Of a stretch of 64,000 nt of DNA, positions 2,341 through 52,712 are shown in pieces. The first letter of the stretch is position 1. Every line of letters begins with the position of its first letter. Origin of the DNA: an uncultured Verrucomicrobiae bacterium (GTDB taxonomy: Bacteria > Verrucomicrobiota > Verrucomicrobiia > Limisphaerales > JAFGQR01); contig CAWBHS010000088.1 of NCBI GenBank assembly GCA_963788655.1, positions 1 through 64,000 of the forward strand. The letters are read 5' to 3'. The position numbers and the translations under genes are program-made. The notes below the pieces were generated by a model that was not told where the DNA came from, ran no database searches, and saw nothing but the letters and a program-made list of their open reading frames with translations.

Positions 2341-2625
2341 ATGGCTCATCAAGCAATTGGAATGATCGAAACGCGCGGACTCGTCGCCCTGGTCGAGGGC
2401 ACCGACGCCATGCTCAAGGCGGCAAACGTGGAACTCGCCGGACCGATGACCCAGGTCGGCAACGCCCTCGTCACCGCCGTCGTCGTCGGCGACGTGGCCG
2501 CGGTCAAGGCCGCCACCGATGCCGGCGCCCAGGCCATCAAGGCGATCAAAGGCGAACTCGTCAGCGTGCACGTCATCGCCCGACCGCACTCGGACGTGGA
2601 AGCGGTGCTGCCGAAGAAAAAGTGA
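2341..2625 (+). CDS. BMC-H hexameric microcompartment shell protein
   Basis: AIGMIETRGLVALVEGTDAMLKAANV...GDVAAVKAA...HVIARPH. Confidence 0.97.
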   Translation: MAHQAIGMIETRGLVALVEGTDAMLKAANVELAGPMTQVGNALVTAVVVGDVAAVKAATDAGAQAIKAIKGELVSVHVIARPHSDVEAVLPKKK

Positions 2626-2708
2626 CTCGTGAGCGTGGTGCGTGAATACATGATGTGTCGGCGAACGCCCGCTCGATTCCGAACATGGCGTAACCCTTCT
2701 CATCCCAT

Positions 2709-2750
2709 GCATCGGGCATCAGGAATCCGGTATCCGGCATCCAGCATCCA
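2709..2750 (+). repeat. Six imperfect GCATCCG heptamer units
   Basis: gcatcgg gcatcag gaatccg gtatccg gcatcca gcatcca. Confidence 0.85.
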
Positions 2751-2765
2751 TTTCCTCCTCCGCCT

Positions 2766-3085
2766 ATGTTCCTCGCCAAAGTCGAAGGCGTCGGTAGTCG
2801 CCACCAAGAAAGACGCCAACATGAGGGGGCGCAAGCTGCTGTTGCTGCGCCCGCATGCTGGTGGACGACAAAGACCCGACGAAGTTCGAACGCGGCGTGA
2901 ACACCATCGTGGCCGTGGACAGCGTGGGCGCCGGCGAGGGCGAGATGGTGATGTTCTGCCAGGGCAGTTCCGCCCGGTTGGCGCCCAATCTCAAGGATGC
3001 TCCCGTGGACGCCGTCATCATCGGCATCGTCGATACCGTCGATGTGCTGGGGAAACAAATCTACAACGCCAAGACCGGTGATTGA
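2766..3085 (+). CDS. BMC-P (EutN/CcmL) pentamer shell protein 1, two apparent indels
   Basis: MFLAKVEG / SVVATKK..MRGRKLLLLRP / VAVDSVGAGEGE.V...QGSSAR...PVDAVIIGIVD. Confidence 0.92.
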
Positions 3086-3120
3086 TTCTGGCTTGGCTGT
3101 CACCACTTTTAAAAGCCTTT

Positions 3121-4641
3121 ATGAACTCCTCAATCAATGAAACCTTAATTCGCGATGTCATTCAGGACGTGCTGGCCGTCTTGGCGGCGCCACTTCTCCG
3201 GCTACCAAGCCGGCAGCGGCACCGTCCCCGGCTCGGACCCCGGCGGTCAATCCGGTGTGCGGCTGTCCGATTCGACGGTCGGTCCGTCTCAACGCGAACT
3301 GCCACCCGCCGCAAATTCGGCGTGTTTCAGGATGCCGGGGAAGCCTGCGAAGCCGCCCAGGAAGCCTTTCGGCAATTATCGGAAAAAGGTGTGGCCGGTC
3401 GCAAGCAAGTGGTTCAGATCGTCAAAGACCTTGGCTATTCGAACGCCCAGGAATGGGGCCGAATCGAACTCGAAGAAACCAAGATCGGCCGGCTGGATCA
3501 TAAGATCGAAAAGCTCCTCGGCCAGCGCGACATTCCGGGCGTCGAATTCTTGCACCCGTTCGGCATGAGCGGGGATCACGGCATCACGATGGAGGAATAC
3601 ACGCCGTTCGGTGTCATCGGCGCGGTCACGCCCTCCACGCATTCCATTCCCACGATGGCGGCAACATCATCAGCATGGTTTCCGCCGGAAATGCGGTGGT
3701 GTTCAATGCGCACCCTGGCGCCTCCCAATGCGCGATCATGGCGGCGCGGATTTTCAACCAGGCCATTCATCGCGAACTGGGCATTGAAAACCTGGCCTGC
3801 ATCATCGATCCGCCGACGCTCGATTCCTTCAATGCCCTGAGCCAGAACGAGAACATTCGCCTGCTATGCGTTACCGGCGGTCCCGGAGTGGTGAAAGCCG
3901 CGATGGCAGCGGCAAACGCGCCATCTGCGCCGGGCCGGGCAATCCACCCGTGCTCGTGGACGGCACCGGTTGTCTCGACCGGGCGGCGGAATGCGTAGTG
4001 GCGGGCGGCGCTTACGACAACAACCTGCTCTGCATTGGGGAGAAGGAAGTGTTCGTGCTCGCACCCGTGTTCGACCAGTTCATGGCCGCACTCGAACGGC
4101 ATGGCGGGGCCCGGTTGAACTCAGCGCAGGTGGAGCGGTTGACCCAGGCGGCGTTTGTGTTTCCGCAAGGACAAGGCGCGGGTTGCCCGCACCCCGTGGT
4201 GAATCGCGACTTGGTGGGCAAAGATCCGGCAGTGCTGGCCCGTGCCGCCGGCGCGACGGTCCCGGCCGGAACCCAATTGCTATTTGCGGAAACCCAGCTG
4301 ACCACCTTTTTGTCGAAGAAGAGCAAATGATGCCGTTCGTGCCGATTGTGCGCGTCAAGAGCGTCGAGGAAGGCATCGCCGCCGCCAAGCAAGCGGAACA
4401 CAACTACAAGCACTCCGCGATGATCCACTCGCACGACGTTACGCACATGACCGACATGGCGCGGGCGTTGGACACGACCCTGTTCATCAAGAACGGTTCG
4501 TGCGTGGCCGGCTTGGGCAGTGGCGGCGAAGGTTACTCGAATTTCTCCATCGCCACCACGACGGGCGAGGGAATTGCCAATCCGCGCACCTTCTGCCGCG
4601 TGCGGCGGTGCGTGATGGTGGGGAACTTGAAAATATACTAG
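3121..4641 (+). CDS. Acylating aldehyde dehydrogenase (EutE/PduP-like) with N-terminal encapsulation peptide, several apparent indels
   Basis: INETLIRDVIQDVL (encapsulation-peptide-like), EETKIGRLDHKIEK, PFGVIGAVTP, VTGGPGVV, AGPGNPP, DNNLLCIGEKE, EQMMP and TTGEG, pieced from 4-5 frames. Confidence 0.92.
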
Positions 4642-4921
4642 ATGTTTTTAGCCCGCGTGGAAGGTAATGTAGTGGCGACCCGCAAACATCCCAGTTTGGA
4701 CGGGTGGCGGCTCATTGTCTGCCAGCCCATCAACAATGCCGGCGATCCGCAAGGCGCGCCCCAAGTGGCGATTGACCCCCACGGTGCGGGCATGCATCGA
4801 GCGCGTCATCATCTCGTCCGACGGCGCCGCCTCCCGCAAAACGGTCGGCAACGAGAAGAGTCCCGTCCGCTGGATGATCGTCGGCATCGTGGACGAAAAC
4901 GAACCCAACGTGCCGGTATGA
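4642..4921 (+). CDS. BMC-P pentamer shell protein 2, one apparent indel near 4798
   Basis: MFLARVEGNVVATRKHPSLDGWRL..C...VAIDPHGAG / VIISSDG...SPVRWMIVGIVD. Confidence 0.9.
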
Positions 4922-5220
4922 GACTCGGAACGGTCATTGGTCGGGTGACGCTCAGCCAGACGGTGCCCGCATTGGTAGGAGCGCGGTGGCTGATTGTCAG
5001 CCCGTTTACCCGAGCACACTTCCAGAGCGGCACCGAAACGCCCGCCGGTCTCAGCAAGGATTTTACGCCCGTTGTTTATGACAACATCGGCGGCGGTGTG
5101 GGCCAGACCATTGGTTACGTGGAAGGCCGCGAAGCTGCCCAACCGTTTGACACTCCTACGCCCGTGGACGCGTTCAACGCGGCCCTCGTGGACGAAATCT
5201 TTTACTCACCCTTATCATGA
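4918..5220 (+). CDS. BMC-P pentamer shell protein 3
   Basis: MRLGTVIGRVTLS...VVYDNIGGGVG..IGYVEGREAAQPF..PTPVDAFNAALVD; ATGA overlap with the previous gene. Confidence 0.9.
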   Translation: MRLGTVIGRVTLSQTVPALVGARWLIVSPFTRAHFQSGTETPAGLSKDFTPVVYDNIGGGVGQTIGYVEGREAAQPFDTPTPVDAFNAALVDEIFYSPLS

Positions 5221-6284
5221 AACAAGTCATCAGCGCCCGAGACATTGAGGAACTTCTCCGCCAAGGCGGCGACCCGAATTCACTTCCCACCGAAGCGATC
5301 CTGACGCCGTCCGCGCGGGATCTGCTGCGCGATCTCGAATTCAAAAACGGCTTTGGCAATGGAAAAGTCGCTTCAACTCCTTCCCCCGCAGCGAAGCCGA
5401 ACCAGCCCGCCGCCGCCCCCCGAGTGGTGACTTCCAAGAGTTCGAAATCGGATTTGGAAGCGTTCTATAATTCGTCACCCATCCAGACGTTCAAAGAGCA
5501 GATGTGCGAAATCGGCCGCCGGCTTTGGCAGCGATCGTACGTGGACGGTAATGGCGGCAACATCGCCATTCGGGTGGGCGAGGACGTCGTGCTCTGCACC
5601 CCCACCTTGGTTTCGAAAGGATTCATGAAGCCGGAGGACATGTGCTTGGTGGACTTGGAGGGCAACCAATTGATCGGTGCCAAGAAGCGCACCAGCGAAA
5701 TCCTGATGCACCTCCAAATGATGAAGCGCCAACCTCAGGATGTCGCGTCGGTACATTGTCATCCGCCGTATGCCACGGCGTTCGCGGTGGCGGGCATTGC
5801 GCCGCCCACGTGCATGATCCCGGAATACGAAGTGTTCTGCGCCGTGGCCGTGGCGCCGTATCGCACGCCCGGCACGCCGGAAATGGGCAAGCTCGTCGCC
5901 GATCTGGTGGACAAGCACAACACCATTCTCATGGCCAATCACGGGGTGGTGACCTGGAGCCACAACCATGTGGAAGAAGCGTATTGGCGGATGGAAATCA
6001 TCGAAGCCTACTGCCGGACGCTGACCGTGGCCGCGCAATTGGGCCAGCCGATGAAGACCTTCAGCACGGAACAAATGAAGGACTTGCTGAACATCAAACA
6101 AGGTCTGGGCTTTGTCGATCCGCGCTTCGGTCTGAAGGAATGCGAACTGTGCGACAACGACGGTTGGCGTCCCGGTGTGACCTGCACGGTGCCGCCCCCG
6201 GAGTCCGCGGCAACGGGTTACGATGGCGATGCCGAACAGATCGTCCAGACCATCACGGAACAGATCATGGCCAAGGTGAAGTAG
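5217..6284 (+). CDS. Class II aldolase (fuculose/rhamnulose-1-phosphate aldolase-like), signature enzyme of PVM loci
   Basis: GNGGNI, TPT..SKG, SE..MH, HCH and NHG metal ligands; C-terminal amphipathic helix AEQIVQTITEQIMAK. Confidence 0.92.
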   Translation: MKQVISARDIEELLRQGGDPNSLPTEAILTPSARDLLRDLEFKNGFGNGKVASTPSPAAKPNQPAAAPRVVTSKSSKSDLEAFYNSSPIQTFKEQMCEIGRRLWQRSYVDGNGGNIAIRVGEDVVLCTPTLVSKGFMKPEDMCLVDLEGNQLIGAKKRTSEILMHLQMMKRQPQDVASVHCHPPYATAFAVAGIAPPTCMIPEYEVFCAVAVAPYRTPGTPEMGKLVADLVDKHNTILMANHGVVTWSHNHVEEAYWRMEIIEAYCRTLTVAAQLGQPMKTFSTEQMKDLLNIKQGLGFVDPRFGLKECELCDNDGWRPGVTCTVPPPESAATGYDGDAEQIVQTITEQIMAKVK

Positions 6285-6336: not shown

Positions 6337-6591
6337 ATGAGCGTTACATTGGAAATCCCGGCTGAAATCGCGGCCAGTATGCGCGTGCCGCCCCAGGAAG
6401 TGGAAAAGCGCCTGCGGCTGGAGTTGGCAATCGCGCTTTACAGCCAGAAGCTGTTGTCATCTGGAAAAGCATGCGCGTTGGCCGGCATGACCCGCTGGCA
6501 GTGGGACGAATTATTGGGGGAACGCCAAGTGCCCCGGCATTACACCTCGACTGAACTTAACGAAGATCTTCATGGCAACGGCCGTCAGTGA
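6337..6591 (+). CDS. UPF0175-family HTH protein (putative antitoxin 1)
   Basis: LRLELAIALYSQKLLSSGKACALAGMTRW. Confidence 0.88.
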   Translation: MSVTLEIPAEIAASMRVPPQEVEKRLRLELAIALYSQKLLSSGKACALAGMTRWQWDELLGERQVPRHYTSTELNEDLHGNGRQ

Positions 6592-7069
6592 TTCATCAGT
6601 CTTGATTCATCTGGGACTCATTGGCCATTTGAGCTGGTTGCCGGCCTTCTTCCAGGAAGTTCTCGTGCCGCCGGCGGTTTGGACGGAGGTTGTTGAGCAG
6701 GGACGATCCGCAGAGGTGGTCCGAGCTATTCAACAAGCGGCAACCGATGGATGGTTGAAGGTTGTTGAACCATCGAATGCCGCGCTGTTGCGTACTTTGG
6801 GGCAAGAGCTTCATCTCGGCGAAGCGGCGGCCATCTGTCTGGCGGTGGAACAGGAGCCAGACGTCCTCTTGATGGACGAAGCCGATGGCCGCGAAATCGC
6901 TGGCCGACTCGAACTCAACACCAGAGGCATCGTTGGACTACTCTTGCATGCCAAGCGTGCGGGGCATTTGCAGGCGGTCAAGCCGGTTATTGAGGAGTTG
7001 GTTCAAAGTCGGTTCCACCTTTCCTCTGCTTTCATTGCCCAAATTCTCGCAGCCGCCAATGAAGCTTAA
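6572..7069 (+). CDS. DUF3368 PIN-domain protein (putative toxin 1)
   Basis: VSDSSVLI, VPPAVWTEV, LHLGEAAAI, LLMDE..GR and GIVGLL. Confidence 0.88.
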   Translation: MATAVSDSSVLIHLGLIGHLSWLPAFFQEVLVPPAVWTEVVEQGRSAEVVRAIQQAATDGWLKVVEPSNAALLRTLGQELHLGEAAAICLAVEQEPDVLLMDEADGREIAGRLELNTRGIVGLLLHAKRAGHLQAVKPVIEELVQSRFHLSSAFIAQILAAANEA

Positions 7070-14719: not shown

Positions 14720-16888
14720 TCATCGTCGTTTTTTCTTTTGCGGCACCACCGGCACGGGAGCTTTGGGAACCAACGGTGCGTTCTTGTCGGCGGCGCGCGT
14801 TAACTTCGTTTGCACAACGGAGAGTAAGTTTTGCACAGTCCAATACAGCGTCAAGCCTGCCGAGAAATTGTACAAGATCACCAGGAACATCAACGGCATG
14901 TAACGCATGACCTTCTGCTGCATGGGATCCACCCCAGGCGAAGCCGGCGTCAGCCGGGCTTGCCAGAGCATGGTGGCTCCCATGATGAGCGGCAGCAGGT
15001 TGAACGGCACATTGAGGCCCGGGATGATGAACAACGTGTCCGGCTGAGACAGATCGGAAATCCACAGCCAACTGGCCCCGCGCAATTCGATGGCGGTGCG
15101 GATCATGGTGTAAAACCCAAAGAAAATCGGCATCTGCACCATCACCGGGAGGCAGCCCGCAGCGGGATTGATTTTGTGTTCCTTGTAAAACTCCCACATC
15201 TTGCGCTGCATTTTTTGCGGGTCATCTTTGAATTTCTCCTGGAGCGCTTTGATTTGCGGTTGCAGCGCCGACATGCGTTTCATGGACCGCGTGCTGATAT
15301 TGGTCAGCGGCCAGAAGATCCCCTTGATGATGATGGTGATGGTGATGATGGCCCAGCCGTAAGAAAACCCCATTGCGTTCAGGCCGTTCATCGACACCAG
15401 CAGCAATTGAGCGAACCAGCCGAAGAACCCAAAACTCATGATCTTGTCCAGGTTGTTCTTCAACCGCGCGCCCAGCCGGGACAAGAGTTTGTATTCTTTG
15501 GGACCGGCGTAGATCAAGAAGGAGTGTGCCACCGAACCCTGCGGTTGCAGCACGGTAGCCGGATAAACCATGCTCGTCTGGTAACCCATTGGGCTCGGCT
15601 TGAGGTCGCGAGTATAGGCCTGCTCCAAGATCAGCCGATTTAGCCGCACCACGTCCTCGGGCCACTGGGTTTGATCCACCAGCCGCCGAACCTGTTCCGG
15701 CAGCGGATGGCGCAAAAAGTAATCCTGATTGGCCTGGTAAATCGATGGTCCGTGGAGAACGTCATTCAAATCGGCCACCAGCGCTTGTTGCATCGGTTCA
15801 GACAGCGACCGGAAATCCACCACATTCTTCAGTTGCGCCCGCGTGTCAGCGGAAAGATGCTGGTACACATATTGGGACAGGCTGTCGGTCGAACTCTGCA
15901 ACGCGAACGCCAAGCCGCCCAGGTTGCTGAAATCCTCCGCCGCAAACAACCAATCCCGCCCGTTGAGCGACCGTTCGGTAGCAGCCAGCGCGTTGGTGGG
16001 TTCGCGCAGTGGGGGCAGATAGACCTCCCGGACGATGACTTCCGTGGCCGGCATGTTGGTGGGGGCGATTGCGGCCAGGGCAAAGAACTGATTGTGGACG
16101 GCCACCCATTCGACATTGTCCTTGCCGCCCGTAAACTGGTGCCGCGGCGTGCCTGGGAAACAACCCAAAGTGCGGTTGGCAAACCAGCCGGCCTGGACTT
16201 GATGGGCCGCCTTGCCATCGTACCAAAACGTTCCCAGCAACCGCAGGTCGTCGGCCAGCCCCATTGGTGTGGCGGTCCCGGTCACCCATTGCTGCGGGGG
16301 AATCGTCATCGGCTGGGAGGAACGGTTCTCCAGGCGGGTCACCGCATCCACCAGGTAGTTGGTCAGCAAATGAAATTCCTTCACCAACGTCAGGCCATTG
16401 GTCAGAGCCTTCTCCGCGCGCACGACGTTCCCCTGGTGACTCAACTGGAACACGTCATTGCCCACGAAGGTCTGGCTGTCGGCCAACGCCATTACGGGCA
16501 ATGGGGCCAAAGTATTGAGACTGGCCCAATTCGTGGCATGGGTAAGGGTGCGCGCCCGTTTGGAAACGCGCGCCGGATACTTCATCAGTTCAACCAGTTT
16601 GAGGCCGCCGCCGTGGGAAGTGAACGTGTAACGGGCCAGATCATTTGTCAGGACCAGCAGTTGTTCCGGGGGCGCCACTTCCTTGGGTGTGACTACGGGA
16701 GCCGGACGATTGGTCGGAATGTTACTGATTTCCGCGATGTTTGTGCCGGCGCTGGTCACCACCTCATTGGTGCCGGACGGTTGGACGACGGGCAGAGGCG
16801 CGGGCGGGTAGAGCTTCTTCATGAGCGCCGGCCACATCAGCAGCGCCATGAAGGAAAGAATGAGAATGATAATGCCTTTACGATCCAT
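14720..16888 (-). CDS. yidC: Membrane protein insertase YidC with a ~120-aa insertion
   Basis: [45 protein letters not shown]. Confidence 0.96.
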
Positions 16889-24696: not shown

Positions 24697-24729
24697 TTAC
24701 CAAGCCGGCCGATTTGCGACCGGACCGTT

Positions 24730-25832
24730 TTAGAATCGTGGCGCCGAGCAGTTCAAACCGTGCGCCTGGGCAACCGCCGGGCAGGTGAGCTGGCCGGCCA
24801 TCACGTTGATGCCTCCCACCAGCGCGGGATGGCGCTGGCAGGCCTCGGCCAGTCCGTGATCCGCCAGTTCTTCGAGGTAACGGTAGGTCACATTGGTCAG
24901 GGCCTGCGTGGCGGTGCGCGCGTAGGCGGCTGGCATGTTGGCCACGCAGTAGTGCGTCACGCCTTCCTCGACAAATACCGGGTCATGATGCGTGGTGGGG
25001 CGCGAAGTTTCGGCGCAGCCGCCCTGGTCAATGGCAATGTCCACCAGCACACTGCCCGGCCGCATGCACCGCACCATTTCGCGGTTGATCAGCCGGGGCG
25101 CCTTGGCCCCGGGCACCAGCACCGCGCCCACCAGCAGATCCACGTGCGGCAACAATTCCATCAAGTGCGCCGGACTGGAGTACAGCGTGTGCGCGGTGTG
25201 CAGGGTGATGTCCAGGAACCGCATCCGTTCGAGATCGACTTCCAGAATCGTCACGTCGGCGCCCAAGCCGGTGGCCATGCGGGCGGCATTCACGCCCGGC
25301 CACGCCGCCGCCGAGCACGACGACGCGGCCCGGCAACACGCCCGGCACGCCGCCCAGCAATACGCCGCTGCCGCCGTAATGCTTGGCCAGGAAATAGCCG
25401 CCCACCAGCACGGACATGCGCCCGGCGATTTCGCTCATCGGCTCGAGCAACGGCAGATGCCGGTTGACCTCGATGGTTTCGTACGCCAGGCCGGTCACGC
25501 CGGATTGCAGGAGCGCCTCCGTCAACGCACGGTTTGCCGCCAGGTGCAGATAGGTGAATAGAAGCTGGCCCGGCGCGCAACAGGGGGAATTCGCTCGGTT
25601 GCGGTTCCTTGACCTTGACGATCAGTTCGGCCCGCTCGAACACGGCGGCGTGTTCAGCCACGAGCGTGGCGCCGGCCTTTTCGTATTCAGCATCGGGGTA
25701 GCCCGCGCCGGCGCCGGCGTCGCGTTCGACCAACACTTGGTGGCCGCGTTGCACAAGTTGATACGCCGCCGAGGGCAACAGGGCCACGCGGTATTCCTGT
25801 GGTTTAATTTCTTTGGGGACGCCGATAATCAT
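24730..25832 (-). CDS. ald: Alanine dehydrogenase, two apparent indels (~25575, ~25295)
   Basis: [45 protein letters not shown] and HYCVANMP. Confidence 0.92.
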
Positions 25833-25987: not shown

Positions 25988-27766
25988 TCATTCATGGGAT
26001 TGAGGTTTTCGCCCGGAAGCCACCAGTTGTTGCATGGTTACAGCCTCCGAGACTTCTTTTTCCACCTGGTAAAACTTCTCGAATTCCTGGCGCACCTGTT
26101 CGCGGGAGGAATCGCTGCTGGTGGCCAGTTCTTCCCCCGGCCCAATCCGTAACGCCTCCAGTACATCGTAGGCGGTGATTTTATCCAGGGGCCGGGCGGG
26201 CTGATACCCCGTGTCGCCATTCAACACCTCGACCACCAGGTTCGCTTGCTGGAGCGTTTGCAACAGCTCATTCACCAGCCGGAGCGGGACTTCCAACGTC
26301 GTCGCCAAGTCGGTGCTGCCAGGCGGTTTTTGGCCCTGCGAAAAATATTCCGCCACGCGGGCCATCAACCGCAAGGCAACGAATTCGCGTCCCCGCTGGT
26401 TGACTTGTTCGCTTTGTTTTTCCTGGGCATCCGATTCGCGGTTTTGGAAGGAATACGCCACTTGGGCCCCCAGTAACAGGATCAGCCACGAAAAATAAAG
26501 TCCCACGAGGAACAACGGCAGAATGCCCAAGCTGCCATAGATGGTGGTGTAGGTCACCACGCGCGAAACGTAGATCACACTGAACAGGTTGTTGAGTTGC
26601 CAAAGGCAGCCGCCGACCGCTCCGCCCACCAGCGCGGCCCGCCACTTCACCCGTGTATTCGGCATGAACTGGTACAAGAGGCCAAACGCCAGGGTTAAGA
26701 TCGCGAACGGTAGCAATTGCAGGATGAGGGGGATCTCCTCGATCAATTTAGCCGTGGTGGTGAAATACGGCCCGGAACTCAATCCCCACACCAAGGCCAG
26801 AACCAGCGGTCCCAGGGTAATGACGGCCCAATACTGGATGATGCTCGCCACCCAACCGCGACCACGATGCACCCCCCAGATGTCATTGAACGCCGCCTCG
26901 ATGGTCCGCAACAGGCCGATGGCCACAAAGACCAGCGCAATGGTGCTGGTAATCCCCAACGAACCGCTGCGGATGTTGCTGATAAAACCCGTGATCTTCT
27001 CGACCACCTGCTGGCGGCGGTCCACGGGGCTCTTCTCCAGCGCGTCGGGATACTTGTCCTCCAGCAACAAACGGTTCAACTGCTGGAGGCGTTCGTCTTT
27101 CGGTGATTGCTGGATCAGTTGGCGGGTCCGTGCTTTCAGGTTCACTCCGTCGAACCGCTGCGGATCGTAAAGCGCCGGGCCTTGGATCACCTGGTTCAGG
27201 GCCTGGACCAGGGCGATGTCGAATTGCTCCTCGTTGGTGGTCGCCAGGCCAGTTCGGGTCAGCCACGGCTGCAGAACGGCCCACGCTTGATTCGTCACAA
27301 ACCGTGACACCGGATCCGCCCCAACCCGCAACTTTTCGAACAGCGCCGGAGCATTCTTGATTTCGTTCGTGGCTAGCAACGGTGAACTGGCGGCCGTCGT
27401 TTCTCCCGGCTTGCTTTCGAGGTTCAGCGCCGGGGCCACGTAGGCGACCAGCTTGTTGATGGCTTCCTCGATGGGTTTCTGTCCCTCGCTCTTGAGCAGA
27501 CTCGAAGAAACGCTGATGGCGATGGCCAGCATCGGCACCAGGGCCAGCAAGGTGGTATAAGCCAGCGCCGACGCCCGATCCAGGCAGCGGTTGCGCACGA
27601 AACTCTTCACCACCACCACGCAGAAATGAGCGAGACGTTGCGTGCGCGAATGCGGCACACCGGGCTTCTGGATGAGATTTTCGGACAGGAGCGCCTCGGC
27701 TTTTTGCCGAAGCGCTTTGATTTTCGGCTTGAGCTGCTTGAGTTTCCCAAAGGTTTTGCCGGCCAT
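25988..27766 (-). CDS. YihY/BrkB (UPF0761) membrane protein with C-terminal Rrf2-like HTH and a ~118-aa insertion
   Basis: ASALAYTTLLALVP, IEAAFNDIW, PNTRVKWRAALVG and IYGSLG.LP.FL..LY.SW.I.LLGA; C-terminal winged helix. Confidence 0.92.
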   Translation of the reverse strand: MAGKTFGKLKQLKPKIKALRQKAEALLSENLIQKPGVPHSRTQRLAHFCVVVVKSFVRNRCLDRASALAYTTLLALVPMLAIAISVSSSLLKSEGQKPIEEAINKLVAYVAPALNLESKPGETTAASSPLLATNEIKNAPALFEKLRVGADPVSRFVTNQAWAVLQPWLTRTGLATTNEEQFDIALVQALNQVIQGPALYDPQRFDGVNLKARTRQLIQQSPKDERLQQLNRLLLEDKYPDALEKSPVDRRQQVVEKITGFISNIRSGSLGITSTIALVFVAIGLLRTIEAAFNDIWGVHRGRGWVASIIQYWAVITLGPLVLALVWGLSSGPYFTTTAKLIEEIPLILQLLPFAILTLAFGLLYQFMPNTRVKWRAALVGGAVGGCLWQLNNLFSVIYVSRVVTYTTIYGSLGILPLFLVGLYFSWLILLLGAQVAYSFQNRESDAQEKQSEQVNQRGREFVALRLMARVAEYFSQGQKPPGSTDLATTLEVPLRLVNELLQTLQQANLVVEVLNGDTGYQPARPLDKITAYDVLEALRIGPGEELATSSDSSREQVRQEFEKFYQVEKEVSEAVTMQQLVASGRKPQSHE

Positions 27767-40126: not shown

Positions 40127-41257
40127 ATGAAGGTTGCCACTTCTATCCTATTCTCTTCCGTGGTGGGCTTGCTCGCCTTGGGCATGGTCATGCTGTTCAG
40201 TGCCAGCACGGGTGAAGCCAAGTTGAGTTACTGGAAAATGCAACCGGTGTGGTGTGCGCTCGGGCTGGGGATTTGTTGGATCCTGGCTGCCTGCGGAGAT
40301 TACGCCTGGCTGAAGAAACTCTGGTGGCTCTGCTGGCTGGCCGGCCTCGCGGTGCTGGTATTGGTCCTCATCCCCGGCATTGGCAAACACTTGAATGGGG
40401 CGAGCCGCTGGATCAAGTTTCAAGGGTTCACGTTCCAACCGTCCGAATTGGCCAAGATCGCTACCATCATCGCGCTGGCGTGGTATGGGGACCGTTACGC
40501 GCGGTTCATGGGCCAATGGCGGCGCGGCTGGCTTTACCCGGGACTGTTGATTGCGCCGGTGATGCTGCTGATCTTCGCGGAACCGGATTGGGGCACGGCG
40601 ATGCTGTTGGCGGCGGTATGTGCCATCATGTTGTTTCTGGCCGGCACGCGAATTGATCTGTTGATGGTCACCGGCACCGGCGCGTTTTCCGCCCTGGCGG
40701 TCCTGCTGTCGAACGACCCCGTGCGCCGTGCGCGTTGGCTGGCTTTCCTGGATTTGGAGCGTTACAAGGAAAGCTTTGGCTTTCAGGTATTCCAATCGGT
40801 AACGGCCATCGGTTCGGGCGGAATCGAAGGCAAAGGTCTGTGCGACGGACGGCAGAAGTTCGGCTTCGTGCCGGAGTTGCACACGGATTTTATCTATTCG
40901 CTCATCGGCGAAGAACTCGGATTGATCGGCACGTTAGCGGTCATTCTGGCGTTTTTGGCCATCCTTTTCACTGGCCTCTACATCGCCCGCCGGGCGCGCG
41001 ACAACTTCGGGATGTTGCTGGCGAGTGGGATCACGTTTCTCATCAGTCTCCAGGCGGCCATCAACATCGGCGTGGTGACAAGTTCGCTGCCGAACAAAGG
41101 CTTGCCCCTCCCATTCATCAGTTACGGCGGTTCCAACCTGGTCATCCTGCTGGGGTGCATCGGCATTCTGCTGAACATTGCCCGGCATGCCGAAGAACCG
41201 GCCAATATCTTTTGTCCCTCGCTGGAACCTTCCGGCGAACTGGAACCCGCCCGATGA
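40127..41257 (+). CDS. ftsW: SEDS peptidoglycan polymerase FtsW
   Basis: GASRWI, FQPSELAK, EPDWGT, PELHTDFI, EELG, LPFISYGGS. Confidence 0.95.
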   Translation: MKVATSILFSSVVGLLALGMVMLFSASTGEAKLSYWKMQPVWCALGLGICWILAACGDYAWLKKLWWLCWLAGLAVLVLVLIPGIGKHLNGASRWIKFQGFTFQPSELAKIATIIALAWYGDRYARFMGQWRRGWLYPGLLIAPVMLLIFAEPDWGTAMLLAAVCAIMLFLAGTRIDLLMVTGTGAFSALAVLLSNDPVRRARWLAFLDLERYKESFGFQVFQSVTAIGSGGIEGKGLCDGRQKFGFVPELHTDFIYSLIGEELGLIGTLAVILAFLAILFTGLYIARRARDNFGMLLASGITFLISLQAAINIGVVTSSLPNKGLPLPFISYGGSNLVILLGCIGILLNIARHAEEPANIFCPSLEPSGELEPAR

Positions 41258-42510
41258 GTGACCGTGTCAACCAACCGTTGATCGCCATCGCCTGCGGCGG
41301 CACCGGCGGACATCTGTTCCCCGGCCTGGCGGTTGCGGGCGAATTAAAGCAACGCGGTTGCGACGTGCTATTGCTGGTGTCTCCCAAAGACGTGGACCAG
41401 CAAGCCGTAAAACAAATTACCCAGATGACCGTGGCCACATTGCCGGCGGTGGGCTTGACTCGCGGCAACGTCTTCCGGTTCCTGGCGGGTTTTGGGAAAT
41501 CCTATTTCACGGCCCGAAATCTCTTTCGCCAACGAGCGCCGCAGGGCGTGCTGGCCATGGGCGGATTCACCAGTGCGCCGCCGGTGCTGGCCGGGCGGGC
41601 CTGTGGCGCGGCGGCTTTTCTGCACGAATCGAACAGCGTTCCGGGACGGGCCAATCGCTGGTTGGCGCGTTGGGTGAATCAGGCTTACGTCGGCTTTCCG
41701 CAAGCGGCCGAGCGACTGCGCTGCCGCGACGTGGTGAAGACCGGTACTCCCGTGCGCCCGGGTTTCTTGCACCCGGATCACGCGGCCAGCCGCAAGGCAT
41801 TGGGCTTCGATCCGCAGCGGCCAGTGCTGCTGATTACCGGTGGTAGCCAGGGTGCTCATGCCATCAATCGTTTGATGATGGACGCGTTACCGCTGCTGGC
41901 GGCGGGACTGCCGCAACTCCAGTTCCTGCACGGGTGCGGCGGGCGCGACGAAGCGGAAGTCAAAGCTGCTTACGCGCGGCAGCCGGTCAAAGCAGTGGTA
42001 CGCGGCTTTGTGACGGAAATGAACCTTGCTCTGGGCGCAGCGACATTGGCGGTGAGCCGGGCGGGGGCCTCGTCGTTAGCTGAACTGGCTGCGGTGCGTT
42101 TGCCGGCGTTGCTCATTCCGTATCCGTCCGCGGCAGACAATCACCAGCACTTCAACGCCCTGGCTTTTGCCGACACTGGCGCCGCGGTGCTTAAAGAACA
42201 ATCCGAAGCCACCGCGGAAAACGTCGCTGAGCAATTGTTGGCGTTGCTCCAGGATGATACCCAGCGCCAGGCGATGAGCGAATCGCTGATCCTTTGGGAG
42301 TCGCCGCGGGCAGCGCAACTCATCGTCGAAAACATGCTCCACCGTTTAAAGGCCACCGGGCTTTTGCCGGCCAACCTGCTGACCATACCGTCAGCATCGC
42401 ACTCCATGCGCCACACCCCGCCCCACAGTTCCTTCGTAACTGCGGCACTGTGGACGCCTTGGAGATTGTGTTCTTGGCTGCGGCCATCTGTAGTTCGCGA
42501 AGCGTCTTGA
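41254..42510 (+). CDS. murG: Lipid II GlcNAc transferase with an extended C-terminal tail
   Basis: GGTGGHLFP, HESN..PG.AN, GGSQGA, SRAGASS, HQ..NA. Confidence 0.96.
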   Translation: MSDRVNQPLIAIACGGTGGHLFPGLAVAGELKQRGCDVLLLVSPKDVDQQAVKQITQMTVATLPAVGLTRGNVFRFLAGFGKSYFTARNLFRQRAPQGVLAMGGFTSAPPVLAGRACGAAAFLHESNSVPGRANRWLARWVNQAYVGFPQAAERLRCRDVVKTGTPVRPGFLHPDHAASRKALGFDPQRPVLLITGGSQGAHAINRLMMDALPLLAAGLPQLQFLHGCGGRDEAEVKAAYARQPVKAVVRGFVTEMNLALGAATLAVSRAGASSLAELAAVRLPALLIPYPSAADNHQHFNALAFADTGAAVLKEQSEATAENVAEQLLALLQDDTQRQAMSESLILWESPRAAQLIVENMLHRLKATGLLPANLLTIPSASHSMRHTPPHSSFVTAALWTPWRLCSWLRPSVVREAS

Positions 42511-49102: not shown

Positions 49103-50341
49103 ATGGGCCTCGTTGAGTTCCTGATTTTGGGCGGAGTAATGGTTTGTGCGGGGGCAAGTTTCTTTTTTGCCCTGGCCGAATCGAGCTTGTTTGTCTTGGG
49201 CCGATGGCGCGCCCGGCAACTCGCCGAACAGAATCCGCGGCAAGGCGACTTGATTGTGCGGCTGCTGGAAAAACCCTCGGAATTGCTGGCGACCATTTCG
49301 CTGGGGAACACCCTGGCTAATGGCAGCATGGTGGCGCTCGTGCTGTTGCCGGCGTTGATCGAAGGTTGGCCGCTGAGCCGGCTGTTGGCGGGAACGTTTC
49401 TGCTGATTTTGGTCGGTTGCGAGGTCGTGCCCAAAACGCTGGCCGTGCGTGCGCCGGACCGCTGGGCGTTGCGGGTGGCGCCCTGGGTGGCGCGCATCCA
49501 AGGTGGCAGCGGTCCCTTTCAGCATCTCGTGCAGAAGCTGAACGATCGGCTGCTCAAAATCTTTGTGCGGAAATCGGTCCGGCCGGCAGCCGCGCTGGCC
49601 GACGAGGAATACCAGGAATTGCTGGACCTGGCCTACCAACAAGGAGCGCTGGCCCAGTCCGAAAAGGAAATCATTCTCAATATTGTCAACCTGGACCAGC
49701 GCACCGCCCAGGACGTGATGAAGCCCCTCTCGCGCATGGATTTGATCTCCGACGATCTGCCCATGGAGGAAATGGTCGGGGCAGCCCGAACCTACAAGCG
49801 TCGCCGCCTGCCCATTTATGATGAAACGCCGGACACCATCGTCGGCCTGTTGAACACCCAGGCGTTGTTGCTGAATCCGGAAATGGACCTCGAGCAAGTC
49901 ATTGAATTTCCGTCCTTCGTGCCGGAGAGCATGAATCTGCTGCAATTGCTCAACAGCCTCCAGAAACAGCGGCGCGGCCTGGCGATCGTGTTGGATGAAT
50001 TTGGCGGTACCGCCGGCGTGGTCACCATGGCCGATATTTTGGAAGCCGTGGTCGGCAAGATTCGGGACGAAGGCGAACCAACCGGTTTCGTCATGGAGAA
50101 GCTGGGGCCCGGGCGCTGGCGCGTGAACGGCACCGCGTGGATTGAGGATTTTCGACGGGAATATCCGGCCCTGGGGGAGACGCCCGACGTGGATACCATG
50201 GGCGGACTGGTCGTGGCGTTGATGGAAATTGTGCCGTCGGCGGGGTCGTCCGTGTCGTTTCGCGGACTGCGGCTCACCGCGCAGACGGTAACCCCCCGGC
50301 GCGTGCGGGAAGTGTTGGTGGAAGTGCTCGGCAAGAAATAA
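49103..50341 (+). CDS. CNNM(DUF21)-CBS-CorC domain protein 1
   Basis: FFALAESSLF, GNTLAN, EVVPKTLA, VLDEFGGTAGVVT..DILE.VVG.I.DE. Confidence 0.92.
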   Translation: MGLVEFLILGGVMVCAGASFFFALAESSLFVLGRWRARQLAEQNPRQGDLIVRLLEKPSELLATISLGNTLANGSMVALVLLPALIEGWPLSRLLAGTFLLILVGCEVVPKTLAVRAPDRWALRVAPWVARIQGGSGPFQHLVQKLNDRLLKIFVRKSVRPAAALADEEYQELLDLAYQQGALAQSEKEIILNIVNLDQRTAQDVMKPLSRMDLISDDLPMEEMVGAARTYKRRRLPIYDETPDTIVGLLNTQALLLNPEMDLEQVIEFPSFVPESMNLLQLLNSLQKQRRGLAIVLDEFGGTAGVVTMADILEAVVGKIRDEGEPTGFVMEKLGPGRWRVNGTAWIEDFRREYPALGETPDVDTMGGLVVALMEIVPSAGSSVSFRGLRLTAQTVTPRRVREVLVEVLGKK

Positions 50342-50383
50342 GATGATACCGTTTTCCCGCCGCTACTGATTCACCCTGAATAC

Positions 50384-51367
50384 ATGCAGAACCTGTTGTT
50401 CATTGCGTTTTTAGTCAGCCTCATGATCGGCTTCTTGATGTCCGGCATGGAAGCCGGCGTCTTTGCCTTGAGCCGGTTGCGGATTCGTCATCAAATGCGC
50501 GCGGGCAATCCCCGGGCCAAGATTCTGTATCATTTTTTGGAGAATCCGGAGGATTTTCTTTGGACCATTCTGGTCGGCAACACGGTGGCGAATTTCGTGG
50601 TGGTGAGCATCGGCGTCATCGGCTTGTTCAGCTGGCTGGGATCCTGGCCGGCGGCGCTGCTGGCGGCACTATTGCTGGCGGGCGTTGGGTTTTATTCCTT
50701 CAGCGAGCTGTTCCCTAAAATGCTGTTCCGGCTGTATCCGAACCGGCTGTGTTTGTGGATGGCTTTGCCGTTCCGCCTGGTTCATCTGGTGCTGCGCCCG
50801 TTGGTGCTGCCCATGGCTTGGTTGGCCAATCACTTGGTGGTTTGGTTCGGTGGACGGAAGTTCACCGGGCGTTTGTTCGGCGACCGCAAGGAACTGCGCT
50901 ACGTGATTCAGGAATCCGCCCAGGACATGAGTCTGGAGGAACGGGCCATGATCAAACGGGTGCTGACCCTCCAAAACCTCACCTTGCGCCAGATCGCAGT
51001 GCCGATGGCCAAGGTCGCTTCCGCTCCGGCGCAAACCCCGGTGCGCGAACTAATGCAGCTTTGTCGGGAACGCGGATTCAGCCGGTTGCCGGTTTGGAGT
51101 CAGGATCCGCGCAGCCAACGCATCGTGGGCCTGGTGAACATCAATCGCTTGTTGTTCCAACCGGATTTGGATCCGGAAAAAGTGGCCGCCGATTTTGTGA
51201 AACCCGCCTTGTTCCTCGACGCCGATTTGCGGATCGAAGTGGCTTTGCGCCAAATGCAACGCACCGGCCAGCGCCTGGCCATCGTTGTCGAACGCGATTT
51301 GGCGGAACTGGGTGTCGTCAGTCTGCAGGACATCTTGAAAGTGATTTTCGGCGAGGTGGCTTTCTAG
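50384..51367 (+). CDS. CNNM(DUF21)-CBS protein 2, no CorC domain
   Basis: SGMEAGVF, TILVGN, ELFPK; ends DILKVIFGEV. Confidence 0.9.
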   Translation: MQNLLFIAFLVSLMIGFLMSGMEAGVFALSRLRIRHQMRAGNPRAKILYHFLENPEDFLWTILVGNTVANFVVVSIGVIGLFSWLGSWPAALLAALLLAGVGFYSFSELFPKMLFRLYPNRLCLWMALPFRLVHLVLRPLVLPMAWLANHLVVWFGGRKFTGRLFGDRKELRYVIQESAQDMSLEERAMIKRVLTLQNLTLRQIAVPMAKVASAPAQTPVRELMQLCRERGFSRLPVWSQDPRSQRIVGLVNINRLLFQPDLDPEKVAADFVKPALFLDADLRIEVALRQMQRTGQRLAIVVERDLAELGVVSLQDILKVIFGEVAF

Positions 51368-51371
51368 CGCT

Positions 51372-52712
51372 ATGGATCCCGAACCCACCACCATTGTCCT
51401 GAAAATCCTGGCGGTCCTGGCGCTGGTGCTGATCAACGGCTTTTTTGTGATGGCGGAATTCGCCCTCGTCAAAGTCCGCGAGACGCAGCTTGAGCCGTTG
51501 ATTGCGCAAGGCCAGCGCCGGGCCAAAGCCGTGCGGAGCGTGTTGGGCAGCTTGGACCACTATTTGAGCGCCGCGCAAGTGGGCATCACCATTGCCAGCC
51601 TGGCGTTGGGATGGGTGGGGGAACCGGTGTTCGCCACATTGCTGCGGCCGTTGATGGAATGGTTGCACATCGACTCGGAGAGTATGCAGCACACGATTGC
51701 GTTTGTGGTCGGTTTCTCCGCGATCACGTTCCTGCACATCACGGCCGGCGAGCAGGCGCCGAAATGGCTGGCCATCCAGAAGCCATTGTCGGCTGCCTTG
51801 TGGGTGGCTTATCCGCTGGTCTGGTTTTGCCGCATCGCCTATCCCTTTATCTGGATCATCAACCAATCCTCGTTGTGGTTGTTGCGCCGCATGGGGATCA
51901 ATCCCGCCGGCGAACACGAAATGGTCCAGTCGGCCGAAGAGTTACGCCTGATGTTCGCGGCCATGCAAAAACGTCTGGGCGGTACGCCGCTGGGCAAAGA
52001 GATCGTGTTGAACGCGCTGGATTTGCACTTGCGCGTGGTTTTGGAAGTAATGCGTCCTCGCCAGGAGATCGTGGCCCTCAACACCCAGGCCAGTCTTACC
52101 GAATGCCTGGAGGTGGCGGAGAAAACCCGTTTCTCCCGCTTTCCCCTGTGCGAGGACGGCGACCCGGACAAGACTCTGGGGGTGGTTCACATGAAGGATT
52201 TGTACGCCATGCGGTTCCGGGCGAAGACGGGCGCGGACTTGCAGGCGGTGATGAAAGGATTGGTCTATTTCCCGGAGACAGCGCGGCTGGAAAAAGTGCT
52301 CCAAGCGTTGCTCGAACGGAAACTGCACCTGGCGGTGGTGGTCGATGAATACGGCGGCACCGTGGGATTAATTACGCTGGAAAACATCCTCGAGGAATTG
52401 GTGGGCCAAATTCAGGATGAGTTTGACACCGAGAAGCCGATGTTGGTGCAGACCTCGCCCGACTCCTGGGACGTGCTGGGATCGTTGCCGATGCATCATC
52501 TGGCCGAATTGGTGGACGAGCCATTGGAAGTCGAGGGCATCTCGACCGTGAGCGGCTGGGTGACGCACCAGTTGGGTGGTTTTCCCAAAGTGGGCGACCA
52601 ACTCACCTTGCGCCACTTCACTTTGCGGGTCGAGGAAACTGAAGCCCGACGTGTAGCCCGCATGCAGTTGACACGCCTGCCCGCACCCGAACCGGAAGCA
52701 AACTCGATTTGA
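51372..52712 (+). CDS. CNNM(DUF21)-CBS-CorC protein 3 (HlyC/MpfA-like)
   Basis: NGFFVMAEFALV, QVGIT.ASL.LG, GEQAPK, VVDEYGG..G..TLE.ILEELVG.I.DEFD. Confidence 0.93.
   Translation: MDPEPTTIVLKILAVLALVLINGFFVMAEFALVKVRETQLEPLIAQGQRRAKAVRSVLGSLDHYLSAAQVGITIASLALGWVGEPVFATLLRPLMEWLHIDSESMQHTIAFVVGFSAITFLHITAGEQAPKWLAIQKPLSAALWVAYPLVWFCRIAYPFIWIINQSSLWLLRRMGINPAGEHEMVQSAEELRLMFAAMQKRLGGTPLGKEIVLNALDLHLRVVLEVMRPRQEIVALNTQASLTECLEVAEKTRFSRFPLCEDGDPDKTLGVVHMKDLYAMRFRAKTGADLQAVMKGLVYFPETARLEKVLQALLERKLHLAVVVDEYGGTVGLITLENILEELVGQIQDEFDTEKPMLVQTSPDSWDVLGSLPMHHLAELVDEPLEVEGISTVSGWVTHQLGGFPKVGDQLTLRHFTLRVEETEARRVARMQLTRLPAPEPEANSI

Follow-up and report, generated by a model that had tools for sequence, protein, structure and literature searches.

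Two unrelated membrane proteins encoded about 11 kb apart in one stretch of bacterial DNA, the insertase YidC and a protein of the YihY/BrkB family, each carry a similar block of about 118 residues that is foreign to both families. The stretch comprises positions 1 to 64,000 (forward strand, 64,000 nucleotides) of contig CAWBHS010000088.1, in the assembly GCA_963788655.1 of an uncultured Verrucomicrobiae bacterium, and is referred to throughout as the window. The explanation that we favor, with a probability of roughly 0.68, is that the blocks are copies of a miniature inverted-repeat transposable element (MITE) of the ISL3 type that doubles as a portable protein domain, and that the window contains two old, independent insertions of it. 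On the best reading of the evidence, the window copies have been inherited vertically and have ameliorated to the base composition of their host; since their own repeats and duplications have decayed, we infer the mechanism of their insertion from their relatives. The host genes, the two copies and what is left of their ends are located as follows.

14720..16888, minus strand: yidC, the first host gene, an open reading frame (ORF) of 722 residues in the operon rnpA-yidD-yidC-jag/khpB
15590..15949, minus strand: module copy 1, YidC residues 314-433, a predicted eight-helix domain between two strands of the periplasmic beta-sandwich
15592..15600, plus strand: decayed 3' terminus of copy 1, GGCTCGGCT, equal at 6/9 positions to the ISL3-type end GGCTCTTCG
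15950..16018, minus strand: Pro/Thr/Ala-rich linker before copy 1, YidC residues 291-313, as seen in the YidC model and in alignment A4
25988..27766, minus strand: yihY/brkB-family gene, the second host, an ORF of 592 residues with a C-terminal Rrf2-like winged-helix domain
27026..27379, minus strand: module copy 2, YihY residues 130-247, in the loop between predicted membrane helices 1 and 2 ('site A')
27028..27036, plus strand: 3' terminus of copy 2, GGCTCTTCT, equal at 8/9 positions to GGCTCTTCG and encoding the block end '...K-S-P'
27380..27391, minus strand: codons for A-S-S-P before copy 2, at the position of the family G-S-S (translated 5' inverted repeat), the repeat having decayed in the DNA

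The assignment of the two hosts to their families is clear. YidC has the 60KD_IMP core of the YidC/Oxa1 insertases (PF02096, residues 510-697, 198.8 bits) together with the periplasmic domain (YidC_periplas, PF14849, 73.5 bits), and its neighbors in the window are Ribonuclease_P, YidD and KH/R3H proteins. YihY has the Virul_fac_BrkB membrane domain (PF03631, 177.6 bits, best stretch at residues 252-443) followed by Rrf2 (residues 464-582), and matches the NCBIfam models NF003256, NF002457 and TIGR00765 (135.7 bits). Both YidC_periplas and Virul_fac_BrkB are interrupted at the block, each being recognized in two stretches, and neither Pfam nor NCBIfam has a family within either block. The two blocks translate as an earlier note, made from the sequence alone, had written them, and the similarity of about 30% with a single gap of two residues that it had counted by hand was recovered by BLASTP (36 identities over 120 columns, E = 1e-6). 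With the full-length proteins as input (E = 6e-5) the block is the sole significant stretch in common. The comparison with shuffled sequences that the note had proposed as a check leaves no ambiguity: the Smith-Waterman score of the two blocks is 113, versus 28.4 ± 5.1 (maximum 60) in shuffles, and none of 2000 shuffles reaches it (z = 16.6). A hidden Markov model (HMM) of 64 module sequences gives 117 bits to the YidC module and 123 bits to the YihY module; no third copy was found in the six-frame translation of the window with either this model or one derived from the two blocks alone. Both copies follow a linker rich in Pro, Thr and Ala and both end in Ser-Pro, again as had been observed in the note. 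In the YidC model this linker has low mean values of the predicted local distance difference test (pLDDT), 74 and 60 for the 10-residue blocks that start at 291 and 301, and before the module it ends in G-R-D-W in place of the family G-S-S.

A profile of the two blocks was searched against 1.84 billion representative proteins and matched 2732 of them at E≤1e-3, 1019 at E≤1e-10 and 29 at E≤1e-30, in proteins from 169 to 6426 residues long that contain one to eight copies each. Thus the profile search suggested in the note does retrieve the module from many unrelated host proteins. In alignment A2, which consists of 64 module instances with one stretch per protein, no Pfam family was matched by more than one instance; NCBIfam gave one weak match among the same 64, PADLOC singletons only, and PHROGs one weak match among 10 near-consensus instances. 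A sequence profile search of the PDB had a best E of 0.075, a Foldseek search of the module model against PDB and BFVD returned no matches at E≤1e-3 (best TM-scores approximately 0.3), a look-up in the ESM Atlas gave no usable match, and a word-based search of longer proteins for the YidC block yielded 480 candidates, the sole match among them being the query. A literature search, which did not cover most subscription journals, found no description of the module. The prospect raised in the note of a match to an already described family is therefore not borne out by the Pfam and Foldseek results.

The fold is confidently predicted: with alignment A2 as input, AlphaFold2 builds the module as eight helices with a mean pLDDT of 95.4 and a predicted template modeling score of 0.87. 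A bridge between residues 7 and 116 brings the N and C ends in contact with each other, such that the module can occupy a surface loop and leave the fold of the host unbroken. The same helices recur in the model of full-length YidC (mean pLDDT 86.9), where the 10-residue blocks starting at 311 to 421 have mean pLDDT values of 94-98, with one at 83, and where they lie between strands E283-290 and E434-442 of the periplasmic sandwich. Five polar positions of the module, S25, N62, N104, R105 and Y112, are nearly invariant. In one branch of hosts that resemble TMEM260 the profile aligns to the module in two parts that overlap (1-67, then 38/46-117; loci L034, L044, L046, L054, L060, L061, L064, L066, L071, L073, L075, L076 and L078), a sign that the long central helix was duplicated internally.

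Comparison with orthologues reveals a clean, in-frame presence or absence of the module in both families, as the note had anticipated. Among the 120 proteins closest to the window YidC (query included), 11 have the module, all at one site, and are 712-778 residues long; the other 109 lack it and, at 590-613 residues, are about 120 residues shorter. In alignment A4 the difference falls cleanly and in frame at a short loop. The nearest orthologue, P0054, is 63% identical to the window protein overall and 53% identical in the module. Of the 120 proteins closest to YihY, 55 have the module, 5 of them at site A, which is that of the window, and 50 in a different loop (site B), while the remaining 65, of 427-571 residues, are without it. 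One further relative, P0331, has at site A a low-complexity insertion that is not the module (alignment A5, columns ~140-280), and from these sequences the site A loop seems to be generally permissive. The Rrf2-like winged-helix domain at the end of the window YihY (26021-26377, minus strand), to which the NCBIfam name 'ribonuclease BN/unknown domain fusion' corresponds, is common to most of its close relatives.

The phylogeny of the modules points to separate insertions. In a tree of 78 modules with supports from the Shimodaira-Hasegawa-like approximate likelihood ratio test, single groups are formed by the modules of YidC (98), the 14 sampled modules of YihY site B (92), the TMEM260-like modules (84) and those of TatC (100). 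The site A modules of YihY do not join those of site B. Three MraY modules do not group, and one of them nests within the tandem array of an unrelated protein (96): this module belongs to P0135 and the array, of six modules, to P0005; identity between them is 62-73%, a similarity that at the sequence level suggests exchange or fresh insertion within one lineage. The two window copies show no special kinship; many members of the family are as close to either copy as the other copy is, and each groups with the modules of orthologues of its own host. At the other extreme are modules so similar that recent movement comes to mind. Those of P0024 and P0090 are 94-95% identical, and that of P0146 is 83-85% identical to both, in three hosts, known here as proteins, that have nothing alike outside the module and in which its boundaries are sharp (..SSLF...EIAKSQ). 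The junctions read ..QQR/GSSLF..EIAKS/QQR.. in P0090 and ..TNL/GSSLF..EIAKS/PNL.. in P0146, and on these protein sequences we regard them as footprints of an 8-bp duplication. Two copies from one metagenome-assembled genome (MAG), L006 and L038, are only 68% identical in DNA.

The diversity of hosts is large. When the 150 best matches were compared with their modules masked, they fell into about 100 groups without mutual similarity, 86 of which are singletons; one group has 35 members and is probably held together by unmasked partial modules. A Pfam scan of hosts was carried out on the 95 shortest matches, 26 longer matches and 38 ORFs from the fetched loci. Approximately half of the short matches have no Pfam domain at all, and where there is one it is often split in two by the module. 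Besides YihY, hosts in membrane biogenesis and transport are YidC, MraY, MurJ, TatC, SecA, SecDF, LptC/D, LptE, Wza, PorV, a BamB-like propeller and prepilin peptidase, together with ABC exporters and POT/MFS, OPT, PTS EIIC and AI-2E transporters. TMEM260-like glycosyltransferases with TPR repeats carry the module at about 40 loci of Verrucomicrobiota. Enzymes and periplasmic proteins are represented by thioredoxin, multihaem cytochromes, subtilase and patatin; secretion and injection systems by TssB, TssG, baseplate-locus proteins and a protein like Tc toxin A; signaling by Ser/Thr and histidine kinases, CHASE2 cyclases, P-II and a sigma-70 family protein with the module between regions 2 and 4; nucleic-acid and conflict functions by N6 DNA methylase, RNA ligase, SIR2, NACHT, a RAMP protein and a DO-GTPase. 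Because the topology of these host families is established, the module would appear to work on both sides of the membrane, in the periplasm as part of the P1 domain of YidC and of LptE, and in the cytoplasm as part of SecA, TssB and the sigma factor. The proposal in the note that the module is confined to extracytoplasmic parts of envelope proteins is thus contradicted by its occurrence in SecA, an ECF-type sigma factor, TssB/VipA, TssG, DNA methylase, RNA ligase, NACHT NTPases, SIR2 and a RAMP protein.

The distribution of the module among taxa is also wider than the lineage-specific one that had been proposed. Genomes were scanned for one conserved nonapeptide; 184 of the 213 stretches retrieved could be confirmed, and 80 were retained as loci. 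These derive mostly from MAGs of Verrucomicrobiota and otherwise from Acidobacteriota, Nitrospirae, Planctomycetota, proteobacterial MAGs, Cyanobacteria, including the isolate Nostoc sp. UHCC 0251, and an 880-kb contig of a Methanotrichaceae MAG. In the latter two (L007, 1879-4416, for Nostoc; L009, 2107-4989, for Methanotrichaceae) it is part of a large protein in a contractile-injection/baseplate cluster with gpV-like OB, gp25, Baseplate_J and DUF6519 neighbors, and this cluster is a possible vehicle of transfer between domains of life.

In well-preserved copies the ends of the module bear the marks of a transposable element. At locus L006, inverted repeats of 22 nt, GGTTCTTCGCTATTTATAGTGG and CCACTAGAAATAGCGAAGAACC, which are 95% complementary, sit exactly at the ends of the module and bound an element of 361 nt; at L047 the arms are 17 nt long and 88% complementary. 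Repeats and duplications were tested in the other copies by scans at fixed registers, with other shifts as control. In the 27 instances outside the TMEM260-like group the complementarity of the arms peaks at the predicted register (8.3/22, versus 4.7-7.2 at other shifts), the value for random 22-mers being 5.7 ± 2.0, with none of 5400 reaching 15. The ends also resemble those published for the ISL3 family, for which the repeat strings compared are those in the excerpts of PMC6305408 and PMC11448079. According to the former, ISArsp7, of the ISL3 family, has a left inverted repeat GGCTCTTCGCGGTTGGTGGTGAAT, starting with GGCTCTTCGCGG, and an 8-bp direct repeat; according to the latter, a 187-bp MITE of Microcystis and its ISL3 partners have ends that start with GGCTCTTCG, and 8-nt repeats. 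The L006 arm equals the ISArsp7 repeat at 15 of the first 22 bases. At the 3' end, agreement with GGCTCTTCG is 9/9 in L019, 8/9 in L006, L035 and the window YihY copy, and 6/9 in the window YidC copy; 17 of 33 TMEM260-like 3' ends agree at 7/9 or more. Random 9-mers reach this level at a frequency of 0.002-0.003, and of 0.0016 in the comparison for the window YihY copy. A search of the window with the repeat pattern GGYTCTTCGCNATTT produced one match, against 1.1 expected by chance, and among the 80 loci this pattern occurs in L006 only.

Target duplications can be recognized at both the DNA and the protein level. The 8-nt flanks are alike at 6/8 or more in 4 of 25 DNA instances at the predicted register (7/8 in L019; 6/8 in L006, L005 and L047), versus 0-1 instances at each of 18 other shifts. 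In proteins, 13 of 285 modules have the same pair of residues ahead of G-S-S and behind position 118, versus 0-7 at 12 other shifts; three of these 13 footprints are tandem units of P0006, and others include P0090 (QR), P0146 (NL) and P0273 (ES), the last being the closest orthologue of the window YihY. Residues -3 to -1 of the family are most often G, S and S, and at residue 118, Q, P, L, R or H is present in 59% of the 287 modules compared (29% background). The codon of this residue takes its first base, a C, from the end of the repeat, which explains why both window blocks end in Ser-Pro. In sum, inverted repeats and 8-bp duplications of an ISL3-type MITE are found in relatives, and the window copies retain remnants of them. 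Consistent with a MITE, the element is short and encodes no transposase, and the only frame of its 361 nt that is consistently open encodes the helical module. Around the window copies a search for repeats gave short ones of the kind expected by chance, apart from a 12-nt direct repeat (11/12 identical; 27011-27022 and 27387-27398) that flanks the YihY module; this too is probably a chance GC-rich repeat, because its spacing of 376 nt is not a multiple of three and it is off the 8-bp register.

The reading frame and base composition of the copies are informative in the same respect. In 67 DNA copies the module frame is open in all 67, while of the other frames +2 is open in 1, +3 in 8, -1 in 31, -2 in 3 and -3 in none. 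An element of 361 nt plus a duplication of 8 nt amounts to 369 nt, or 123 codons, and hence the frame of the host is kept at every insertion. Among 19 instances, 9 encode the Ile of E-I-A by ATA, a rare codon, versus 2.05 expected from host usage (p = 6.5e-5), and TTT at position 2 and CTA at position 1 are enriched (p = 0.03 and 0.02, uncorrected). Copies near the consensus are more AT-rich than their host genes: the Spearman correlation between HMM score and GC difference is -0.51 (p = 0.0075, n = 26), and the GC content at third codon positions is 0.59 in the module versus 0.72 in the host gene for L019, 0.32 versus 0.48 for L006, and 0.56 versus 0.73 for L012. The GC of the window copies equals that of the window.

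These observations can be put together in the following scheme. A non-autonomous DNA transposon, a MITE with ISL3-type ends, would have one frame in one orientation open throughout, and this frame would encode a compact all-alpha domain of about 118 residues. Its repeats of ~22 nt would belong to the coding sequence, with G-S-S-L-F read from the 5' arm and E-I-A-K-S from the 3' arm, whose last base would open the following codon, and insertion would duplicate 8 bp of target. Mobilization would be provided in trans by a transposase of the ISL3 family. The survivors would be those insertions that happened to lie in the open frame and orientation within tolerant loops; thereafter the module would be passed on together with its host gene, whose base composition it would come to share, the repeats would be lost and purifying selection would act on it, the domain being presumably in the main a harmless passenger with no selected function. 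In this sequence of events a loop of the periplasmic domain of YidC would have been struck in the ancestor of a small clade, and the first extracytoplasmic loop of YihY in a separate event. The guess in the note that the block might be a domesticated coding mobile element is accordingly the one that fits best with the terminal inverted repeats, the 8-bp target duplications and the 94-95% identical copies in unrelated proteins, and its more general claims, that the block is a real, portable, helical module foreign to YidC and YihY and was inserted repeatedly, stand.

A number of results weigh against this scheme and must be set beside it. A near-perfect inverted repeat is present in one copy only, that of L006. 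The 39 TMEM260-like copies have no peak of arm complementarity (6.3/22), and the window copies, at 5/22 each, keep no paired repeat; their 8-nt flanks match at 3/8 and 4/8, with no clear duplication. A test with mismatched partners in loose windows did not separate real pairs (9.22) from the control (9.03), because a family-wide repeat also pairs across copies. Of five codon tests, uncorrected as reported, the ATA result alone survives correction. No transposase family was recognized among the 53 window ORFs scanned, and no search was made for an ISL3 element whose ends match. None of the 80 loci, which were found via a conserved peptide, has an intergenic copy of the module, all being inside ORFs of at least 317 residues, and this counts against transposition because an ordinary MITE should leave many such copies. 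A search by tblastn with a near-consensus module against plasmid and phage collections gave nothing. The median ratio of nonsynonymous to synonymous substitution rates (dN/dS) is 0.21 for the module and 0.19 for the host (60 of 111 pairs, non-independent). Together with the near-invariant polar residues, this purifying selection fits equally well with a domain that must merely stay folded and with a selected function, and the conservation of the translated ends could have its cause in the protein, where they form the bridge that closes the domain.

An alternative that we consider plausible, though unlikely, is that the module is a selected functional adaptor, acting by self-association or by binding to the membrane or to a shared partner, which was spread by duplication, recombination and horizontal gene transfer, its transposon-like ends being incidental; the same holds for an adaptor function on top of the insertion of a MITE. 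Selection on the module as strong as that on the host and the conservation of the five polar positions are what one would expect of an adaptor, as are the tandem arrays of up to 8 copies, the long retention in YidC, in YihY site B (50 clusters) and in TMEM260-like glycosyltransferases across Verrucomicrobiota, and the frequency of hosts from envelope biogenesis, secretion, contractile injection or conflict systems. However, the occurrence of the module in periplasmic as well as cytoplasmic proteins speaks against a single compartment-specific partner, the variety of hosts, with about 100 unrelated contexts, does not favor an adaptor, no conserved neighbor gene was noticed at L007 and L009, the loci whose flanks were examined, and repeats and duplications in a fixed register, AT-rich young copies and a frame-preserving length are not expected from ordinary domain shuffling.

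The module could also be mobile by a route other than ISL3-type transposition, such as illegitimate recombination, a different transposase or retro-insertion, each of which strikes us as improbable. The complementarity of the ends and their likeness to GGCTCTTCG would in that case be by-products of the peptides G-S-S-L-F and E-I-A-K-S, motifs that could account for the family-wide excess of complementarity, but not readily for L006, whose 21/22 complementary bases include wobble positions that are not dictated by the protein, nor for the rare codons ATA, CTA and TTT where the repeat predicts them. Most copies indeed have no detectable repeat pair, and the ISL3 ends were compared with the repeat strings of two papers only; yet G-S-S lies outside the folded domain and is still the commonest tripeptide before it, and the peak of 8-bp duplications is exactly at the length and register of ISL3. 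We give hardly any credence to the remaining candidates, an intein, a self-splicing intron, ancestral host sequence, or a chance or low-complexity likeness. In-frame inserts in conserved essential genes are often inteins; here, the module has no hidden out-of-frame ORF, the model is all-alpha, there is no Cys/Ser...His-Asn junction and the junction residues are variable, in agreement with the exclusion of an intein in the note. A self-splicing intron was rejected on the basis of an Rfam scan of the whole window, which found one tRNA and no intron, ancestral host sequence on the basis of the 109 YidC and 65 YihY relatives without the module, and chance or low-complexity likeness on the basis of the shuffles and of the 2732 proteins in the family.

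Selfish DNA in frame inside genes is known mainly from short elements of Rickettsia. Like those palindromic elements, which as presented in the excerpt of PMC10969869 are ~150 bp long, MITE-like, confined to Rickettsia and found in frame in unrelated genes, the element described here is a short non-autonomous repeat that resides in frame in many unrelated genes, as a conserved peptide tolerated by the host protein. It differs in its 361 bp, in encoding a complete domain predicted as eight helices (pLDDT 95), in its occurrence in several phyla, in its ISL3-type ends and 8-bp duplications, and in its long-lasting purifying selection; judging by that excerpt it works like a Rickettsia palindromic element and, at 361 nt and in other phyla, is not a member of that class. 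With ISL3 elements and MITEs it shares ends of GGCTCTTCG or close to it and a target duplication of 8 bp, but in the Microcystis MITE, as far as described in the excerpt of PMC11448079, there are only two ORFs of <30 residues and insertion is mostly intergenic, whereas here the whole length, repeats included, is one open frame and all copies seen are inside genes. Relative to these accounts of Rickettsia elements and ISL3 MITEs there are then four departures: a full domain of an unseen fold, repeats that are part of the reading frame, a range that crosses phyla, and selected retention in core proteins.

Other systems are similar in part. The ShiLan domain (excerpt of PMC11855218), a homing insertion in a phage DNA methylase, is likewise in frame, can be classed with neither inteins nor introns, and is predicted to protrude from the host protein as a loop; in contrast to what is described for it, no other frame is consistently open in the 67 copies of the module. 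PARCELs (excerpt of PMC2996958) are tandem motifs of 25 residues that lie in ORFs without a known function, and resemble the module as coding repeats with dyad symmetry that are patchily distributed across distant microbes and often occur in membrane-targeted proteins, whereas the module is a discrete domain of 118 residues, inserted singly in loops of housekeeping proteins. Inteins too are selfish in-frame insertions, often in conserved essential genes; the module, unlike them, lacks the Hint fold and the residues of a splicing junction, and is retained in the mature protein.

Whether all this amounts to an undescribed class of mobile element, a 'domain transposon' whose whole sequence, inverted repeats included, has evolved for translation as an autonomous, loop-compatible domain of unseen fold, is in our judgment evenly balanced. 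Such a design may let the element colonize essential genes (yidC, secA, mraY, tatC) across phyla, and, in the boldest version, the domain may later have been co-opted as a common handle linking envelope and secretion machines. As it stands, a transposon appears to carry a complete folded domain into about 100 unrelated proteins of several phyla, among them core machines of membrane biogenesis. If this is correct, a bacterial protein can gain a whole domain in a single transposition step, by a prokaryotic, transposon-driven domain insertion comparable to exon shuffling, and a class of puzzling lineage-specific inserts in housekeeping proteins would be explained. Domain databases would gain a large unannotated family, of 2732 representative proteins and with no Foldseek match in PDB or BFVD, a natural, loop-tolerant scaffold for insertion would be on offer, and annotators would be warned that inserts of this kind are not host-specific innovations.

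Several other features of the window are of interest in their own right. Alanine dehydrogenase (24700-25832, minus strand) has its N-terminal, middle and C-terminal parts in three frames, corresponding to two frameshifts, and is either a pseudogene or the result of an indel error in the assembly. At 6337-7069 (plus strand) a UPF0175 gene adjoins a DUF3368 gene in what looks like a toxin-antitoxin pair. The MurG ORF (40735-42510, plus strand) has ~180 N-terminal residues with no Pfam match before its GT28 domains, which may be due to an over-long ORF call or to an extension. Three tandem paralogues of the CNNM/CBS/CorC type are located at 49103-52712 (plus strand). Finally, a BMC shell protein, an EutN/CcmL vertex protein and a class II aldolase occur together at 2341-6284 (plus strand), a locus that we take to be a microcompartment of the planctomycete/verrucomicrobial type.

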